From contig CAWDUQ010000001.1 of the NCBI GenBank assembly GCA_963805495.1, positions 131,432-195,431 on the forward strand: a stretch of DNA of 64,000 bases. Direction: 5' to 3'. The translations under genes were made by a program, and so were the position numbers. Shown here one piece after another: positions 6,933 through 64,000 of the stretch; the first letter of the stretch is position 1, and the number at the start of each line of letters is the position of its first letter. A model generated the notes under the pieces. The model did not search any database. It was not told the DNA's origin and saw only the letters and a program-made list of their open reading frames with translations. Origin of the DNA: an uncultured Acidobacteriota bacterium. Its GTDB lineage: Bacteria; Acidobacteriota; Thermoanaerobaculia; UBA5066; Gp7-AA6.

Positions 6933-6992
6933 GCCTGACGCCCGGCATCAGCCGCTGCGCCAAGGGCTGTCCGCTGCACGCTCTTGTTAGGC
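6933..6992 (-). other. attC: attC site, short (60 nt) variant
   Basis: GCCTGAC...GTTAGGC. Confidence 0.65.
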
Positions 6993-7022
6993 CGCAGCAG
7001 GGCATCGACATCACTCCCCTGC

Positions 7023-7661
7023 CTACATCTGCAATAAGAAATAGATGACAAACAGGAGAACTGCGCCCAGACAGGCGCCGTAAAGCAACTTGATCCCCAG
7101 CGACGTGCGAATGCCCTCAGCGGGTGGCGGGAAGGGAATGCTGATCGCCCGTATGGCCGCCAGATAGCCTACCGTCCCCATCGCAATCCTTAACCAGTCA
7201 AACGCAACCCACTGTCGCACCATCGCCCGGATCATCGCAGTATCAGTAGTCGCGCCTGGAGCGCCTCTGGCAACTGCCCACAGCGCAGCGTTGCGTGGCC
7301 AGAACGCGAGGACCGTGAATATCAATGTCGCAAAAATCATTATCGCCGATAGGAACAGCAACAGTCGGTACTTCGGCGGTGTTGCCCAGCCGCTTATCAA
7401 CGCTCCTAGAGAAGCCAGCAGCAGCGCGGCAGAGCTTGGAATGAAAAACTCGCCTGTGTCTACAGGGTATCGCGGCCCGTATGGCAATAAGCTCAATGAC
7501 TCCGGCGGAGAGGCACTCCAGGCGCCCACGAGGACGCGCAGATCGAACAGCTTCGCGCCCAGAAGGACTCCCCAGGCGATTACCAGGATCCACAGAAAGA
7601 ACCGGGTGACGCGCATGCGCGTGAAGATGGTTCTGCTCGAGGGCTCGATTGTGGTAGTCAC
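7023..7661 (-). CDS. integral membrane protein (212 aa)
   Basis: multi-TM hydrophobic ORF. Confidence 0.5.
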   Translation of the reverse strand: MTTTIEPSSRTIFTRMRVTRFFLWILVIAWGVLLGAKLFDLRVLVGAWSASPPESLSLLPYGPRYPVDTGEFFIPSSAALLLASLGALISGWATPPKYRLLLFLSAIMIFATLIFTVLAFWPRNAALWAVARGAPGATTDTAMIRAMVRQWVAFDWLRIAMGTVGYLAAIRAISIPFPPPAEGIRTSLGIKLLYGACLGAVLLFVIYFLLQM

Positions 7662-9560: not shown

Positions 9561-9916
9561 ATTCGCGCGCCCACCTCGATGCCTCGTTCGCCGCGCTCTC
9601 GGATGCCACCCGACGCGGCGTTCTGGAGCAGCTGGGACGTTCCGACGCTTCGATCACGGACCTTGCCGAGAAGTTCCACATGACCCTCACGGGCATCAAG
9701 AAGCACGTCGGCGTCCTGGAGCAGTCCGGGCTCGTCACCACGGAGAAGCTCGGGCGCGTGCGGACCTGCAAGCTCGGCCCGCGCCGATTGGAGGAAGAGA
9801 CGGCATGGCTCGAGAGGTACCGCCATCTCTGGGACGCACGCTTCGACGAGTTGGACAAGGTCGTCGAGGAATTGAAACGAAAGGAGAAGGTCGATGGACG
9901 CAAGAAGAGAGAGTGA
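9551..9916 (+). CDS. arsR: ArsR/SmtB-family transcriptional regulator (track GTG start 9530 also possible)
   Basis: LSDATRRGVLEQL...HTH motif. Confidence 0.85.
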   Translation: MVQYSRAHLDASFAALSDATRRGVLEQLGRSDASITDLAEKFHMTLTGIKKHVGVLEQSGLVTTEKLGRVRTCKLGPRRLEEETAWLERYRHLWDARFDELDKVVEELKRKEKVDGRKKRE

Positions 9917-10409
9917 GGCCACACCGATGAAGAACCGCACGACTGTGGAACGGAAGTCCGAGCGTGAAATCGTCGTCACGCGAACTTTCAACGGTCCGGC
10001 GCGCATCGTGTTCGAGGCGTGGACCAAGCCCGAGTTGTTCAAGCAGTGGTGGGTGCCGAAGTCGATGGGAATGTCCCTGCTTTCCTGCGAAATGGATGTT
10101 CGTGTCGGGGGCAGGTACCGTTTGGAGTTCGCACACGGGGACTCACAGGCGGCGTTCTTCGGCACGTACAAGGAAGTAACACCGCACTCGCGCCTCGTCT
10201 GGACCAATGAGGAAAGTGACGAGGGATCCGTCACGACGGTGACCTTCGCGGAAACAGGCGGCAAGACGTTGCTCGTCATGCACGAGCTCTATCCCTCGAA
10301 GGAAGCTCTCGACGCTGCCGGCACCGGAGCTGCGGACGCAATGAGCGAGACGTTCGAGCAACTCGACGAGCTTCTCGTCGTCCTCGGCGCGAGCGTGGGA
10401 CGGTCATGA
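9894..10409 (+). CDS. SRPBCC / Aha1-domain protein (typical ArsR partner)
   Basis: 171 aa, AHSA1-like fold motifs; overlaps arsR stop. Confidence 0.8.
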   Translation: MDARRESEATPMKNRTTVERKSEREIVVTRTFNGPARIVFEAWTKPELFKQWWVPKSMGMSLLSCEMDVRVGGRYRLEFAHGDSQAAFFGTYKEVTPHSRLVWTNEESDEGSVTTVTFAETGGKTLLVMHELYPSKEALDAAGTGAADAMSETFEQLDELLVVLGASVGRS

Positions 10410-57014: not shown

Positions 57015-58211
<1,197 letters not shown>

Positions 58212-58504: not shown

Positions 58505-58753
58505 CTAGCCGCCGCGGGCCTTCCTCACCGTCCCGGACCTCAAGCGGCCGAGCACCTCGCGGGCCGGAATCGTATCGGCTCGCTCGGTGTCCAACTCCCG
58601 CTCCCGGCGCTCGGCCTCGTCGAACCAGAGGCGTTCGATGGCCGTCTCGCCGGCGGGGGGCAGGCTCGCCATGAGCCTCCGTGCGAGAGCGGCTCGCGCC
58701 CGGGCTCCGAGCTTCAAGGCTTCGGCTTCGATCTCTTCGAGTTTCCGAGGCAT
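58505..58753 (-). CDS. putative addiction-module antitoxin
   Basis: 82 aa [15 protein letters not shown]... Confidence 0.6.
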
Positions 58754-58830
58754 ACCCGTGACCTCCGGCGCTCATCCAGTCTACGCCGCCTTTCGCCTGT
58801 CTACTGATTGTCGCGAAGGGGCCGGCGACC

Positions 58831-59271
58831 TTACGCGAACGGGTTCCTGACGGTCACGCCCTCGTAGGTCTGGCCGTCGCTCAACTCCTCGGACCAGAGC
58901 GTCCGGCATCCCATGCGGAGGGCGCTCTGCAGGATCATGGCGTCCCAGAACGCGACGTGCAGGCGGCGCTGAAGTTCGATGGCGGACAGCAGATCGCCGC
59001 GACCAGGCTCGTGGACGCGCCACTCGGCGAGCACGGAGGTTTCCGACGCCGCTTCCTCCGGCGTGAGCGCCGGTCGCAGCCGCGCGGTCGCGGTGACGTA
59101 GAACTCCTGGAGGACCTGGAGACTCAGGCAGCCGGTTCCGCCGGCCCAGAGCCGGTCGAGCAGCCGAAGCGCGAGCTCGCGTTTGCGGCCGGCGCTCCGA
59201 TCGTAGGAATAGACGAGTACGTTCGTATCGACGAACTCGGGCGTCCGGTCAGCGGCGCTCGTGGAGCTCAT
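58831..59271 (-). CDS. vapC: VapC PIN-domain toxin
   Basis: 146 aa; FVDTNVLVY...D...D PIN acidic residues. Confidence 0.8.
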   Translation of the reverse strand: MSSTSAADRTPEFVDTNVLVYSYDRSAGRKRELALRLLDRLWAGGTGCLSLQVLQEFYVTATARLRPALTPEEAASETSVLAEWRVHEPGRGDLLSAIELQRRLHVAFWDAMILQSALRMGCRTLWSEELSDGQTYEGVTVRNPFA

Positions 59272-59500
59272 CGCGGGTCCAGGGGATCTTGCCGCCGGTG
59301 CCGAGGTCCCGAGGGTTCTTCATGCTCTCGCGCCACCGCTCGTACGCCTGCTCGTAGGAGTCGTTGTGGCGCACGAGCTCCTCGAGCGCTTCGACGAGGA
59401 GCCGGGAAATGGAAGTCTCCTTCTCGACGGCGAGGTGTTTGACCCGGCGAAGGAGGGCCTTGGGCACGACGAGTGTGACGTTCTGGTTTTCCACGCCTCT
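59249..59500 (-). CDS. vapB: VapB-like RHH antitoxin (start uncertain)
   Basis: overlaps vapC start; VTLVVPKALLRRVKHLAVEKETSISRL. Confidence 0.5.
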   Translation of the reverse strand, partial: RGVENQNVTLVVPKALLRRVKHLAVEKETSISRLLVEALEELVRHNDSYEQAYERWRESMKNPRDLGTGGKIPWTRDELHERR

Positions 59501-59535
59501 ACCTTCTTTATGGGTGTTGTCGCGAGCGCCGGCCT

Positions 59536-59558
59536 TCACGTAAATAAGTGTAGCACGT
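59536..59558 (-). promoter_or_regulatory. direct repeat ACGTGAATACGTGAAC in AT-rich region upstream of vapBC
   Basis: candidate operator/promoter. Confidence 0.3.
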
Positions 59559-59599
59559 GAATACGTGAACAAATATCTAAATAACTGTCCGGTAAAGTC

Positions 59600-60220
59600 T
59601 TATGTCTTAGGAAGCTCGACCCAGGGGGCGATGGAGAGGGCGTTCATCACGATCTCGACGGAGAGGGCGGCGAGGATGAGGCCCATGACGCGAACGAGGA
59701 CGGAGGCGCCCTGGCGGCCGATGACCTTGAGGATCGCGTCCGACGCGAGGAGGAGTCCCCAGTTCAGGAGAAGGACGGCCACGAGCACCCCGGCCGTCAT
59801 CGCCTGCTGCGGCACGGTGTAGACGTCGTTGTCGGTCAGGAGGATGACCGCCATGATGGCGCCGGGTCCGGCGATCGAGGGCACCGCGAGCGGAAAGATG
59901 GCGATGTCGCGGTCTTCCTGGCCGGCCGGGCTCGGGGCGTCCGCCGAGCCGAAGAGCATCTGAAGAGCGAAGAGGAAGAGGATGATGCCGCCCGCGAGCT
60001 TGAGCGAGAGCAGATGGACGCCCATCGCGTCGAGCACGATCTGGCCGATGACGACCGCGCCCACGAGGATCATCGCCGCGTAGAGGGTCGCCCGGAGCGC
60101 GACGCGGCGCCGCTGCCCGCGATCGAGCGAGGCGGTCAGGCCGGCGAAGAGCGCGAGGGTGCCGATCGGATCGACGGTCGTCCAGATCAGCACGAAGTCG
60201 CGGATGAGTTTTTCGAGCAT
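59600..60220 (-). CDS. marC: MarC-family (UPF0056) membrane protein
   Basis: 206 aa multi-TM. Confidence 0.8.
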   Translation of the reverse strand: MLEKLIRDFVLIWTTVDPIGTLALFAGLTASLDRGQRRRVALRATLYAAMILVGAVVIGQIVLDAMGVHLLSLKLAGGIILFLFALQMLFGSADAPSPAGQEDRDIAIFPLAVPSIAGPGAIMAVILLTDNDVYTVPQQAMTAGVLVAVLLLNWGLLLASDAILKVIGRQGASVLVRVMGLILAALSVEIVMNALSIAPWVELPKT

Positions 60221-60259: not shown

Positions 60260-62221
60260 TCAGTCGTAGACGCCGTCGGCAAACCAGGCGCCGTCGCGGC
60301 GGTCGCGGTAGACGCGGTAAAGGCCGCCGTCGGAAAGCTCCACGTCCCAGTAGTCGCGATCGGCGGGGGCCTCGGTCCACCAGCCGTCCTCGAGGGACCA
60401 CGGGCCCGAGGCGACGCGCACGGATCCGGAGACGGGCGGCGCCGCGTCGGGCGCGGATTTGATGGCGTATGGGCGACCGCTGCCAGGCCGTCGATCTTCC
60501 GCGCTCCCGTCGTAGGGGCGGCCTTTATGGCCGCCCTCATCCGCCACCGACGATGGAAGGGCGGGGACCAGCCCCGCCCCTACGACCGGGGGCGGAGGCG
60601 AGGTCAGCACTTCGAGCGCCACTGGCGGCCGCAGCACGCGCACCGACAGCAGCCCCCTGCCGTTTCTCGACGGCGAACGCAGCTTCGGCGGAGGGGGCGG
60701 CGTGTAGCCGGTCGAGGCGTAGCGCTCGGGGCGGTGACCGTCGACCGGGCGAGGCGAGCCGACGCGGTCGGCGCCGAGAAGAGCCGCGAGGCGAGCGATC
60801 GTCGTCGCGAGGCGGTCGGGCGAGAGGGCCGCGGGGCCGAAGAGGGAGAGCTGCGCGCGGCGCGGCGCGTCCGGATGCGCGGAGAAGACGAAGCCGGCAA
60901 CGGGTGCGCCGGGCGGGCGCGCTTCGAGCTCGAGGCGGACGAGGGTCAGGAGCGTCCTGGCGTCGCGGGTGGGGGCGGGCAGCGCGATCGCGCGCGCGTC
61001 GTGGCCGTCGGGGTCGAGCTTCAGCGTCACTTCCAGGCGCGTGCAGGAGAGGGCGCGGGACTCGAGCCGCGCGAGCAGGCGCTCGAGCGCGGCGTGCGCG
61101 AGAAAGAGGAAGGGCTCGAGGGTCGCGAGCGGCCACTCGAGGTCCATGCCCTCGGTGAAGGAGGGCGGCGGGACCCAGGGCTCGAGCGGCTGCGGGTCGA
61201 GACCGCGCGCGGACATGTGGAGGGCGCGGCCGATCTCGCCGAGACGGCTCGCGACTTCGCCCTCGGGCAGCTTCGCGAGCTCGCCGATCGTCGAGAGGCC
61301 CCAGCGGTCGAGGGTCGCGGCGATCTCGAGCTGCGGGGCGAGCTTCTCGAGCGGGAGCGGCGCGAGGAAGTCCGCCTCGGCGCCTCGGGCGACGACGGTC
61401 GGCGAGTCGGGAAGGCCCGCGGCGACATGGGCGGAGAGCTTCGAAGCCGCGACTCCCACCCGCGCCGGCAGTCCCGCCTTCTCCGCCGCGCGGATCATGT
61501 CCCGCGCGAGGTCTTTCACGGCGTCGCCCTGGTCGTAGGGGCGGCCCTTGTGGCCGCCCTGCATTTTCGCGCTCCCGTCGTAGGGGCGGCCCTTGTGGCC
61601 GCCCTCCTCCGCCACCGACGATGGGAGGGCGGGGACAAGCCCCGCCCCTACGACCGGGGCCTGCACCTCGCTCCCGCCGACGAACCCCGCCCCTGCGACC
61701 GCCTGAACATCGGCTCGGCTCCCGTCGTAGGGGCGGCCATTGTGGCCGCCCTGCATTTTCGCGCTCCCGTCGTAGGGGCGGCCCTTGTGGCCGCCCTCCT
61801 CCGCCACCGACGATGGGAGGGCGGGGACAAGCCCCGCCCCTACAACCGGGGGCCGGACCAGCTCGCCGACACGTGCGGGGCTCAGCCGCGCATGCCCCTC
61901 CAGGTCCACGTACGCCACGCCCTCCCCCGCGTCCTCGATGCGCGGCGAGAAGGATTCCGCGACCTCGAGCAGCGCCTCCGACGCGGCGCGCTCGCACTCG
62001 GCGTCGCGTCCGCGCGCGACGAGGCCGGGCATGCGCGCGCGCGCCTGGGGCAGCGTCATGCCGGGGACGATGCCGGCCCGGCGCGCCTTGCGCGTCGCGG
62101 CGACGACGCGCGCGGCGTTGCCGTTGCCCTCGAAGATCGCGACGGCCTCGCCCTTCAGCTCCGGCTCGCTCCGCAGCCGCGCCGCGAGCGGGAAGAGGGG
62201 GACGAAGAGGCAGGCGATCAT
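60260..62221 (-). CDS. imuB: ImuB-like Y-family polymerase paralog carrying in-frame hairpin-repeat insertions
   Basis: N-terminus MIACLFVPLFPLAA...AVAIFEG... typical of ImuB; repeated GHKGRPYDGS peptide units encoded by REP-like repeats. Confidence 0.7.
   Translation of the reverse strand: MIACLFVPLFPLAARLRSEPELKGEAVAIFEGNGNAARVVAATRKARRAGIVPGMTLPQARARMPGLVARGRDAECERAASEALLEVAESFSPRIEDAGEGVAYVDLEGHARLSPARVGELVRPPVVGAGLVPALPSSVAEEGGHKGRPYDGSAKMQGGHNGRPYDGSRADVQAVAGAGFVGGSEVQAPVVGAGLVPALPSSVAEEGGHKGRPYDGSAKMQGGHKGRPYDQGDAVKDLARDMIRAAEKAGLPARVGVAASKLSAHVAAGLPDSPTVVARGAEADFLAPLPLEKLAPQLEIAATLDRWGLSTIGELAKLPEGEVASRLGEIGRALHMSARGLDPQPLEPWVPPPSFTEGMDLEWPLATLEPFLFLAHAALERLLARLESRALSCTRLEVTLKLDPDGHDARAIALPAPTRDARTLLTLVRLELEARPPGAPVAGFVFSAHPDAPRRAQLSLFGPAALSPDRLATTIARLAALLGADRVGSPRPVDGHRPERYASTGYTPPPPPKLRSPSRNGRGLLSVRVLRPPVALEVLTSPPPPVVGAGLVPALPSSVADEGGHKGRPYDGSAEDRRPGSGRPYAIKSAPDAAPPVSGSVRVASGPWSLEDGWWTEAPADRDYWDVELSDGGLYRVYRDRRDGAWFADGVYD
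61530..61860. repeat. cluster of twin-hairpin REP-like repeats (GGGCGGCCCTTGTGGCCGCCC / GGGCGGGGACAAGCCCCGCCC); other copies 60509-60592, 62310-62392, partial 62413-62450
   Basis: each arm self-palindromic, arms mutually inverted. Confidence 0.8.
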
Positions 62222-63115
62222 CGGCGGATGCGCAGCGGAGCGGGGATGAGCGCGTTCTCGTCGCAGGGGCGACGCGCCGCCGGGGCCCGGTTACGCCCGG
62301 TCCGGCCCCCGTCGTAGGGGCGGCCCTTGTGGCCGCCCTCATCCGCCACCGACGATGGGCGGGCGGGGATGAACCCCGCCCCTACACCCGGGGGCCGGAT
62401 GCTGGGGGACGGACCGTGGCCGCCCTCATCCGCCACCGACAGCGCGAACGACTCTCCCATCCCCGTCCGCGCCCGCCCGTCCTTCTCGAGCGTCAGCCGC
62501 ACGACCACGCCTTCGAGCAGCCGCGGTGATTTTCCCGCTCCGCGCCAGATCGCGCGCGCGTTCTGTGCGGAGACGACCGACTCGGCGGCGACGCCGCTGA
62601 CGCGATAGGGCGCGAGCACGAGGAGCGCCGCTCGCCGGTCGCGGGCCGCGCGCGTCAGTCGCACCCACGCGGCGTCGGGCACGAAGCGGCCGCGCACGGG
62701 CGCAAGCCCCAGGTCGACGACGACGAGCGGGAAGCCCGCCGCGAGAAGCATCTCCGCGCTCGCGACGGCTTCCTTCAGCTTCGACGGCCGCACCCAGAGG
62801 AGACGCTCGAGCTCGACGCCGGCTTCCTCGGCCGACTGCGGATCGAGGTGACCGCCGAGATCGACGAGCGCCGCGGCTTCGCCGGCGGAGGTCATGGCGG
62901 CGAGCGACGCGATGCCGATCGAGAAGCGGCCGCACGAGCGCCGTCCCGAGATCTCCGTCAGCGCGCCGCGCGGGAGCCCGCCGGAGAGCAGCCGGTCGAG
63001 CACGGGGACTTTCGTCGCGAACGGGTTGCGCGCGTCGGAAAGCGACGGCAGCTCCGACGCGCGTGAAAGCCGGGCTCCCGATTCCTCCAGCAGCCGCTCG
63101 ATCGCCGCAGCGCCC
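62218..63115 (-). CDS. imuA: ImuA-like (RecA/SulA-fold) protein; C-terminal tail encoded by hairpin repeats
   Basis: LPSLSDARNPFATKVPVLDRLLSGGLPRGALTEISG motif; precedes imuB with 4-nt overlap. Confidence 0.6.
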
Positions 63116-63239
63116 ATGTCCGCCTCCCCGCTGTCGTAGAAGAGGAGACGATAGGCGTAAATAAGGCGTAACTCAAGTGGATAATTCAAATGTCATCTGA
63201 ACTTGTCTATAAGTAAAGTCAGCATTACATTACGTTGGT

Positions 63240-63461
63240 ATGAGGAACCGTCTGCGCGTCCTTCGAGCCGAAAAAGACTGGTCTCAGGCGGACCTCGCGG
63301 GGCGGCTCTCGGTCTCGCGCCAGGCCGTCAACGCGATCGAGACAGGACGCGCGAATCCCGGCCTGCCTCTCGCCTTCGACATCGCGAAGCTCTTCGACGC
63401 GCTGATCGAGGAGATTTTCATCCCCGACGGCGAGCCGCTTCCGCAGTCTTTCGGGACCTGA
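63240..63461 (+). CDS. XRE-family HTH transcriptional regulator
   Basis: 73 aa, Cro/C1 HTH; divergent from imuA. Confidence 0.75.
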   Translation: MRNRLRVLRAEKDWSQADLAGRLSVSRQAVNAIETGRANPGLPLAFDIAKLFDALIEEIFIPDGEPLPQSFGT

Positions 63462-63566: not shown

Positions 63567-64000
63567 ATGAATCTCTTCGTCAAGGGAATGATCGTGGGAT
63601 TTTGCCTGGCGGCGCCCGTCGGGCCGATCGCCGCGATCTGCGTGCAGCGCACGATCGCCAAGCGCTGGATCTCGGGCATCGTCTCGGGGCTCGGAGCGGC
63701 GGCGGCCGATGCCGTCTACGGCGCGGTCGCGGCCTTCGGCGCAACGATCGTCTCGGAGTTCCTGATCAGCGAGCACGCGTGGCTCCAGCGGGTGGGGGGG
63801 GTCATCCTGCTCGTCCTCGGGCTCCGCCTTCTCCTCATGCGGCCGATCGAGCGGGAGACCTCGAACGGAAACGGCGGCCGCGGCCTCGTCGGCGACTTCG
63901 CGTCGACCTTCGTGCTGACGCTGACCAACCCCATGACGTTCGTGGCGTTCGCCGCGATCTTCGCCACGATGGGAATCGGCGCCGTGCGTGGGGAGCCGAT
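63567..64000 (+). CDS. LysE/RhtB-family amino-acid exporter (partial, continues past window)
   Basis: N-terminal conserved LysE helices. Confidence 0.8.
   Translation, partial: MNLFVKGMIVGFCLAAPVGPIAAICVQRTIAKRWISGIVSGLGAAAADAVYGAVAAFGATIVSEFLISEHAWLQRVGGVILLVLGLRLLLMRPIERETSNGNGGRGLVGDFASTFVLTLTNPMTFVAFAAIFATMGIGAVRGEP

Follow-up and report, generated by a model that had tools for sequence, protein, structure and literature searches.

Repetitive extragenic palindromes (REPs) of the GTAG type, hairpin repeats that are common in bacteria and usually intergenic, are known to occur inside genes, and were surveyed together with CGTC-tagged REPs by Di Nocera et al. in 2013 (PMC3733652). Some of the surveyed REPs lie wholly within open reading frames (ORFs), over half of them in dimers or larger sets that encode 20–30 amino acids (aa), and the intragenic copies are concentrated in genes for replication and repair (uvrABCD, recBCD, polA and the error-prone dnaE2). 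The inserts were suggested to fall in flexible loops, and it was speculated that they might alter repair activity; neither imuB nor imuA is mentioned in the text or tables of that paper (PMC3733652). The present analysis concerns a GTAG REP family within the imuA and imuB genes of an uncultured Acidobacteriota bacterium of the class Thermoanaerobaculia (contig CAWDUQ010000001.1, a stretch of 64,000 nt, hereafter the window, numbered from its first letter). As in-frame REPs in repair genes were reported in 2013, the imuAB case adds to a known phenomenon. New here are imuB and imuA as hosts, three recurrent insertion sites with orientation polymorphism, and a gene for a REP-associated tyrosine transposase (RAYT) neighbouring the operon in relatives. 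We consider it probable that doublets of these REPs entered a functional imuA-imuB pair in frame, at three spots that tolerate them, and are carried as passengers in the proteins.

The ImuA-ImuB-DnaE2 mutasome, including the ImuB1 group of Proteobacteria and Acidobacteria and the domain scheme of ImuB, was described by Timinskas and Venclovas in 2019 (PMC6511836). As in that system, imuB of the window (60260–62221, minus strand; 653 aa) encodes a homologue of Y-family polymerases with an apparently catalytically dead core, a QLSLFG clamp motif and a beta-rich C-terminal ImuB-C end. The imuA gene (62218–63117, minus strand; 299 aa), which encodes a RecA-fold protein, lies directly upstream, and its stop codon overlaps the start codon of imuB in the sequence ATGA, an arrangement of the kind associated with translational coupling. 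The locus differs from the described mutasome in that dnaE2 does not follow imuB, as a first-pass annotation made from the letters alone had also reported: an ORF of dnaE2 size was found neither in the window nor within 10 kb of the locus in four relatives. It differs further in lacking a known LexA box, in having an XRE-family regulator as a conserved divergent neighbour, and in the position of the operon beside a very large chromosomal integron. A split arrangement of the ImuA-ImuB-DnaE2 cassette is known elsewhere.

Two other kinds of small repeat invite comparison. Rickettsia palindromic elements (RPEs) are also palindromic repeats that lie in frame in functional protein genes, and the peptides that they add are thought to be surface-exposed. 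RPEs are longer (about 100–150 nt), AT-rich and restricted to Rickettsia, and we know of no transposase for them. The likeness is functional only, because the window element is a GC-rich GTAG REP with a RAYT partner, has no sequence relationship to RPEs and is not a member of an RPE family. Bacterial MITEs (miniature transposable elements with inverted repeats) such as Nezha and Correia/NEMIS are likewise small non-autonomous repeats that coding regions can accommodate, internally or at their ends. However, MITEs have terminal inverted repeats matching the transposase of an insertion sequence and target-site duplications, whereas the window element has the REP architecture and a partner of the Y1/HUH type.

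The repeat unit in the window is a 25-nt GTAG-type REP, in which GTAG is followed by an 8-bp GC stem with a 5-nt loop. The pattern GTAGGGGCGG[SS]N5[SS]CCGCCC (i.e. GTAGGGGCGG[CC/GG]-5 nt-[GG/CC]CCGCCC) is present in 10 exact copies, as compared with 0.03 expected, all of them within 60512–62385 and nowhere else in the window. The two arm sequences named in the first-pass annotation gave 6 and 4 matches (0.04 and 0.00 expected), found in the 60.5–62.4 kb interval only and at counts far above chance, and its description of the arms as inverted pairs is borne out. Two stem variants were distinguished, A (GGGCGGCC...GGCCGCCC) and B (GGGCGGGG...CCCCGCCC). One A, a conserved 22-nt spacer and one inverted B together make up a REP doublet forming hairpins (REPIN) that measures exactly 72 nt, or 24 codons, from GTAG to CTAC. 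The window contains four REPINs (60512–60583, 61580–61651, 61772–61843 and 62314–62385), which are pairwise identical at 65–72 of 72 positions, spacer included. Each can fold either into a single long hairpin or into twin hairpins, with ΔG of −31 to −37 kcal/mol (lowest −36.7) and z-scores of −3.4 to −6.2, and the stems remain perfectly paired despite changes in the loops. No Rfam RNA family was found in the 59–64 kb region. The 5' GTAG with a short GC hairpin, and the pairing of two variants as inverted doublets able to fold into a single long hairpin, are shared with the GTAG REPs, bacterial interspersed mosaic elements and REPINs known from E. coli (REP/TnpArep) and Pseudomonas.

The copies occupy three sites. 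Site 1, the central one, is a loop after the strand AYVDLEG inside the IMS/palm domain of ImuB (aa ~113–235). It holds an A-A-B triplet at 61535–61651 on the plus strand (A 61535–61559, A 61580–61604, and B 61627–61651 on the minus strand), the last two REPs of which are the second REPIN, and another A-A-B triplet at 61727–61843, also on the plus strand (A 61727–61751, A 61772–61796, B 61819–61843). Between the two triplets lies a degenerate half of a B-type REP (61679–61701, plus strand; family D3, 87% identity). The second triplet is a 192-nt (64-codon) tandem duplicate of the first (61519–61667 against 61711–61859, 93% identity, family D1), and the REPINs of the two are identical at 72/72 positions. 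The extra A stands 45 nt upstream of each doublet, making a 45-nt (15-codon) repeat. Site 2 (ImuB aa ~541–583) is a loop between the first two predicted β-strands of ImuB-C and contains the REPIN at 60512–60583 on the plus strand (aa ~547–570; A 60512–60536 on the plus strand, B 60559–60583 on the minus strand). The third site is the C-terminal tail of ImuA at the imuA-imuB junction, after the conserved core ends near ...LTLEKDGRAR. Downstream of that core are the REPIN at 62314–62385 (plus strand; A 62314–62338, B 62361–62385) and a truncated remnant, half an A stem with the spacer (62416–62440, plus strand; family D2, 100% identical to 62329–62353). This remnant is the partial copy that had been noticed at first reading; it is real, and is common to the window and its closest relative in the alignment.

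All copies read in frame as VVGAGLVPAL...GGHKGRPYD, in agreement with the GHKGRPY-type peptides reported earlier; an example of an insert junction in the window is ...EEGGHKGRPYDGSAK.... The unit length of 85 nt given in the first-pass annotation proved to be a boundary artefact, the doublets being exactly 72 nt, and the suggestion that a length not divisible by three hints at selection falls with it. Since the length of every event (72, 45 and 192 nt) is a multiple of three, there is no frame paradox.

The genomes compared were those of four close relatives (L001, L118, L119 and L120) and L080, an unrelated 7-kb contig found by a pattern scan. L001 is the closest relative, with an ImuB 91% identical to that of the window and its genes in the same order. 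Past its XRE and LysE genes lies a 155-aa gene (6975–7442, minus strand) with A and B REPs on both sides, some identical to copies in the window. The encoded protein is a match to the model NF047646, 'REP-associated tyrosine transposase' (5e-33; 114 bits, the cutoff being 80), and E. coli TnpArep (4ER8, 2e-10) is its best, and sole, relative of solved structure. A 65%-identical RAYT gene, also REP-flanked, is found at the syntenic position in L120 (4462–4920, minus strand). In both genomes the gene lies between a CDGSH-ferredoxin gene and LysE, at a distance of 1.7–4 kb from imuA; it is absent from this position in L118 and L119. In the L120 gene call, part of the RAYT region is merged into an over-long LysE (296 aa).

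In the relatives, further REPs lie between genes. The pattern scan of genome contigs for the motif returned at least 116 stretches, which show its distribution, not counts; among the matches listed were Acidobacteriota, Hymenobacter, Flavonifractor, Desulfobacterota and other groups. With a GTAG-tagged palindrome, inverted doublets with a conserved spacer and, in L001 and L120, a REP-flanked RAYT gene all found, the element is, as judged by its sequence, a GTAG-type REP/REPIN family with a putative cognate RAYT in relatives. The earlier label 'REP-like' was correct and is sharpened accordingly to GTAG REPs in REPIN doublets. Protein searches with the translated element added little: a word-index search with a 46-aa REPIN peptide gave one irrelevant match, and a HMMER search with a 47-aa REPIN peptide against 1.84 billion representatives gave 11 matches. 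The eight of these that were read were all repeat-array ORFs of other REP families, and real REPIN-bearing proteins were not revealed. The database proteins P0122–P0131, with G(x)HKG(R/C)PY repeats, are translated REP arrays of related families in other organisms and are likely spurious gene calls.

A five-way DNA alignment showed near-identical coding sequence and wholly different content at exactly the three sites. The imuAB genes of L118 are without REPs, and a different palindrome (CCCTCTCCC...GGGAGAGGG) is present at the imuA-imuB junction (9910–9990). In L119, site 2 holds only one B, which is in the opposite orientation, and the junction holds a third palindrome family (GTCATCCYGAGCG...; L119 354, 9894 and 9973). 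Site 1 of L001 is occupied by a 60-nt A-B doublet oriented opposite to that of the window, and the site-2 insert of this genome is shared with the window, while REPs are found at the ImuA tail, site 1 and site 2 in L120. The ImuB of L080, 62% identical in a full-length alignment, is occupied at site 1 by a REP and at site 2 by a doublet. More distant homologues include other repeat-derived peptides at matching places (PLPPGEGRGEG and CHPERSEGSAP types). In 89 ImuB proteins of the clade, a regular-expression heuristic recorded GTAG-REP-type peptides in ~31% and the GEGRGEG type in ~39%, the two variable segments being 34–183 aa and 32–389 aa long. The case thus differs from those of the 2013 survey of GTAG REPs in its hosts, imuB and imuA of uncultured Thermoanaerobaculia, in having three occupied sites in one operon, and in an occupancy whose number and orientation vary between close relatives. 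As a separate observation, gene calling in L118 gave no imuA, perhaps owing to a frameshift or an assembly error.

Outside the two variable segments, ImuB is ~90% identical to its nearest homologues, with many invariant columns. The ratio of non-synonymous to synonymous substitution rates (dN/dS) against the four relatives is 0.11–0.18 for the imuB core and 0.15–0.42 for the imuA core. The QLSLFG clamp motif (ImuB aa 457–462) is invariant in an alignment of 20 sequences and conserved to at least 90% in one of 58, and the ImuB-C region is conserved, with predicted β-strands over 529–652 in an AlphaFold2 (AF2) model built from 58 homologues. In Pfam, ImuB matches PF00817 IMS at 1e-18 and PF11799 IMS_C and no other families; structures of Pol eta and Pol IV are the top PDB sequence matches, as expected for a Y-family fold. 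In a weak local alignment, F6, G101 and V102 of ImuB correspond to the catalytic D13, D115 and E116 of Pol eta, which lends moderate support to the catalytic carboxylates having been lost, as expected for a dead ImuB. ImuA matches PF00154 RecA at 7e-12 and NF033429 ImuA at 4e-11 (43 bits, below the cutoff of 150), and its orthologues in relatives carry PF27531 MT3502_N. The presence of ImuA-like and ImuB-like genes at the locus, claimed from the letters alone, is therefore supported by the IMS match, the RecA fold and a weak match to the ImuA model. The exact ImuB and ImuA sequences are on record in the database from a single contig (ImuB 100% match), and the names borne by close homologues point to the Thermoanaerobaculia.

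These substitution patterns indicate that imuB and imuA are alive and under purifying selection. The first-pass annotation had left room for dead genes whose long ORFs are artefacts of GC content; the low dN/dS against four relatives, the retained motifs and a confidently modelled Y-family core speak against it.

The inserts fall where the fold appears able to accommodate them. At site 1, the PF00817 match stretches 261 residues over 144 profile positions, and in a local alignment with human Pol eta the stretch ImuB 125–242 and chain residues 139–203 are left unaligned in the two proteins. In the AF2 model, ImuB 122–225 and 547–577 show no secondary structure and, residues 149 and 561 excepted, a predicted local distance difference test score (pLDDT) below 50, whereas the Y-family core and the ImuB-C strands are confident; the ImuB inserts are thus predicted to be disordered. 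The site-2 insert common to the window and L001 has diverged by 11.5–16.8%, as compared with 15.7% at third codon positions and 6.4–6.9% overall in the core. As the insert diverges at about the neutral rate, its peptide is not detectably constrained. The earlier proposal of tolerated insertions in an ImuB interdomain linker and the ImuA tail holds for the tolerance and for the ImuA tail; the central site is a loop of the IMS/palm domain, not an interdomain linker. A genuine protein repeat domain was also considered and rejected, given that ImuB has only IMS and IMS_C matches in Pfam, that disorder is predicted for the segment and that the insert shared with L001 evolves near-neutrally.

The reading frame of the inserts is biased. 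All 11 gene-sense REPs read GTA-GGG, so that the xxG-TAG stop frame is avoided and the open xGT-AGG frame is unused too, and 13/16 antisense REPs read CCC-TAC. Because the events share ancestry, this bias is treated as unexplained and not as meaningful.

In the process that we favour, the RAYT, an HUH/Y1 tyrosine transposase related to TnpA of IS200/IS605, would mobilise the non-autonomous REPINs as single-stranded DNA, a role suggested by its homology. Insertions of a multiple of three nucleotides that keep clear of the stop frame and land in dispensable loops would escape a filter of purifying selection; the hairpin-rich DNA would then duplicate locally, as in the 45-nt and 192-nt events. 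The passenger peptides would drift neutrally while the mutasome genes stay functional. Presence/absence and orientation polymorphism among the relatives lends indirect support to mobilisation by the RAYT.

Several points weigh against this account. No RAYT gene is present in the window, which stops at 64000 in LysE, the RAYT gene being located just past LysE in relatives. All window copies of the REP are in imuAB, a count that covers the 64-kb window, and the REP-bearing ImuA and ImuB are known here from genes alone. To our knowledge, RAYT-mediated transposition of a REP has never been directly observed, and for E. coli TnpArep only cleavage and rejoining in vitro are known. Finally, plain tolerance does not obviously account for the frequent hits in imuB as compared with other genes that encode flexible loops.

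The last point arises from a survey of 35 REP clusters in 33 Acidobacteriota loci of 8 kb, the sampling of which was not strictly random. There was no spanning ORF for 17/35 clusters. When 20 spanning ORFs (of 25 candidates) were run against Pfam, three clusters were placed inside Pfam-confirmed genes: two in imuB of L080, which are not independent, and one between VWA and TPR domains. Among the sampled genic REP sites, imuB is clearly over-represented; the preference is strong and remains unexplained. The VWA-TPR case (L084 1–2721, minus strand) is a REP doublet of the same family lying in frame in a 907-aa ORF of another Thermoanaerobaculia metagenome-assembled genome.

One explanation of the preference, which would refine insertion at tolerant spots and not replace it, is that insertion is targeted or local, through proximity of the RAYT gene, a preferred target or hairpin, or seeding by resident REPs. 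This we regard as possible, if doubtful. It fits the finding that the RAYT-bearing L001 and L120 have two and three occupied sites and L118 and L119, which lack the RAYT, none and one, and that REPs cluster as A-A-B triplets, as partial copies and in both orientations at one site. However, the genes between the RAYT gene and imuAB (LysE in L001, XRE) are not hit, the imuB gene of L080 has REPs and no RAYT is present in its 7-kb contig, and other repeat families, presumably moved otherwise, use the same sites. Five genomes are also too few to decide the matter.

It is unlikely, in our estimate, that the REPINs have been put to adaptive or regulatory use, their hairpins or peptides being retained because they tune the mutasome. 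Hairpins in the mRNA could set the ImuA:ImuB stoichiometry or mRNA stability, hypervariable hairpins could act in a contingency-like manner, or the length of the loops could alter contacts of ImuB with the clamp, ImuA or DnaE2. Such use would accord with the excess of imuB (two imuB and one VWA-TPR linker being the only Pfam-confirmed genic clusters of the 35), with REPs at matching positions in 5/6 related genomes and with REP-type peptides there in ~31% of the 89 clade ImuBs, as well as with stems that stay paired while loops vary, with the reading-frame bias and with the speculation of Di Nocera et al. that REP insertions modify repair proteins. On the other hand, the ImuB of L118 is insert-free and under equal purifying selection, and the number, orientation and family of the inserts differ between close relatives. 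The near-neutral rate of the insert shared with L001 and the predicted disorder of the ImuB inserts also argue against it, and the use of the same sites by unrelated palindrome families suggests a permissive sink and not a specific function. A stronger form, in which the RAYT/REPIN system and imuAB are functionally linked in Thermoanaerobaculia and REPINs are targeted to or retained in the ImuB loops and the junction as fast-evolving tuning modules, is slightly less likely still; if true, it would supply a mechanism behind the long-standing and unexplained over-representation of REPs in genes for DNA repair.

Tandem slippage alone, without a mobile element, is a very improbable source of the repeats. 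Events of the slippage or duplication type are indeed seen at the central site, namely the 45-nt A-A repeat and the 192-nt duplication, and to that extent the slippage raised in the first-pass annotation stands for the extra copies there. It fails as the origin of REPs at all sites, as three separate sites, distributed over two genes, share the 72-nt unit. That slippage was the only source is ruled out by REPs that are intergenic and around the RAYT gene in relatives and by a motif found in many phyla, so the supposition that the element might be absent elsewhere does not hold. Least probable of all is that imuA and imuB are pseudogenes with ORFs opened by high GC content, which the other open frames (ORFs of 767 and 601 aa) and a GC content of 0.70–0.74 might suggest but which is ruled out by dN/dS well under 1 against four relatives and further opposed by ~90% amino acid identity with many invariant columns outside the inserts, indel lengths that are all multiples of three, and avoidance of the GTAG stop frame in 11/11 gene-sense REPs.

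With these insertions, imuB and imuA join the DNA-repair genes known to carry in-frame REPs. The close relatives form a natural series in which three shared positions are empty, singly or doubly occupied, or occupied in inverted orientation. Such a series is suited to testing whether REPs in repair genes are neutral or modify mutagenesis, to studying REPIN insertion (how targets are chosen, orientation, and local hops away from the RAYT gene), and to finding which ImuB loops mutasome assembly can spare. For annotation, GHKGRPY and VVGAGL-type peptides in GC-rich genomes should be taken as translated REPs and not as protein repeats.

Upstream of imuA, an XRE-family helix-turn-helix gene (63240–63461, plus strand; 73 aa, PF01381 at 6e-12) is transcribed divergently, an arrangement conserved in the window and in all four relatives (L001, L118, L119 and L120). 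The intergenic region includes a conserved 30-nt block, CTTGAGTTACGCCTTATTTACGCCTATCGT (63147–63176, minus strand), located 30 nt upstream of the imuA ATG. It is identical in 4/5 genomes and near-identical in L120, and can be read as TTGAGT-N17-TATCGT, which is promoter-like, a function suggested by its form; it also contains a direct repeat of TTACGCC. A palindrome, ATGTAA-N8-TTACAT (63211–63230, plus strand), with one mismatch in the window, adjoins the XRE start and is conserved in relatives. Neither the motifs of the 30-nt block nor this palindrome recurs upstream of intI. The LexA box suggested upstream of imuA at first reading did not materialise: none of eight published motifs, which may not be those of this class, was found there with up to one mismatch in the five genomes. 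The imuAB genes may thus be controlled by the XRE protein instead of LexA, which is offered as a lead and not as a finding. Next to the XRE gene, LysE is cut by the window end at 64000; a TIR-domain gene (PF13676) lies between LysE and XRE in L119 (7361–8284) and L120 (5703–6614) and is absent from the window and L001.

On the other side of the operon, marC (59600–60220, minus strand) is next after imuB and intI (57015–58211, minus strand; TIGR02249 at 3e-130) is nearby, both as first annotated. Between intI and marC, small genes at 58505–59572 (minus strand) are putatively toxin-antitoxin-like, as judged by position and length only: the ORF at 58831–59271 (146 aa) equals in length a PIN-domain gene at the matching place in relatives, and that at 58505–58753 (82 aa) equals the Unstab_antitox gene of L001. 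From position 1 to ~56.5 kb, the window is one very large chromosomal integron cassette array beside intI. No REP copies were found in this array (window 1–56500). It has roughly 85–95 attC-like repeats (GCCTAACGGGTGGCGGGTCAGCGGCGAG...GAGTCCGCTGCACCCGCGGGTTAGGC) at a spacing of 290–2700 nt, and several cassettes are present in 10–16 near-identical copies (300-nt families D5, D9, D11 and others). The GC content of the array is 0.60–0.67, as compared with 0.70–0.74 in the imuAB region. In IntI, a Pro/Ser/Arg-rich insert at aa ~249–267, which is not REP-derived, splits the match to the integron-integrase model in two.

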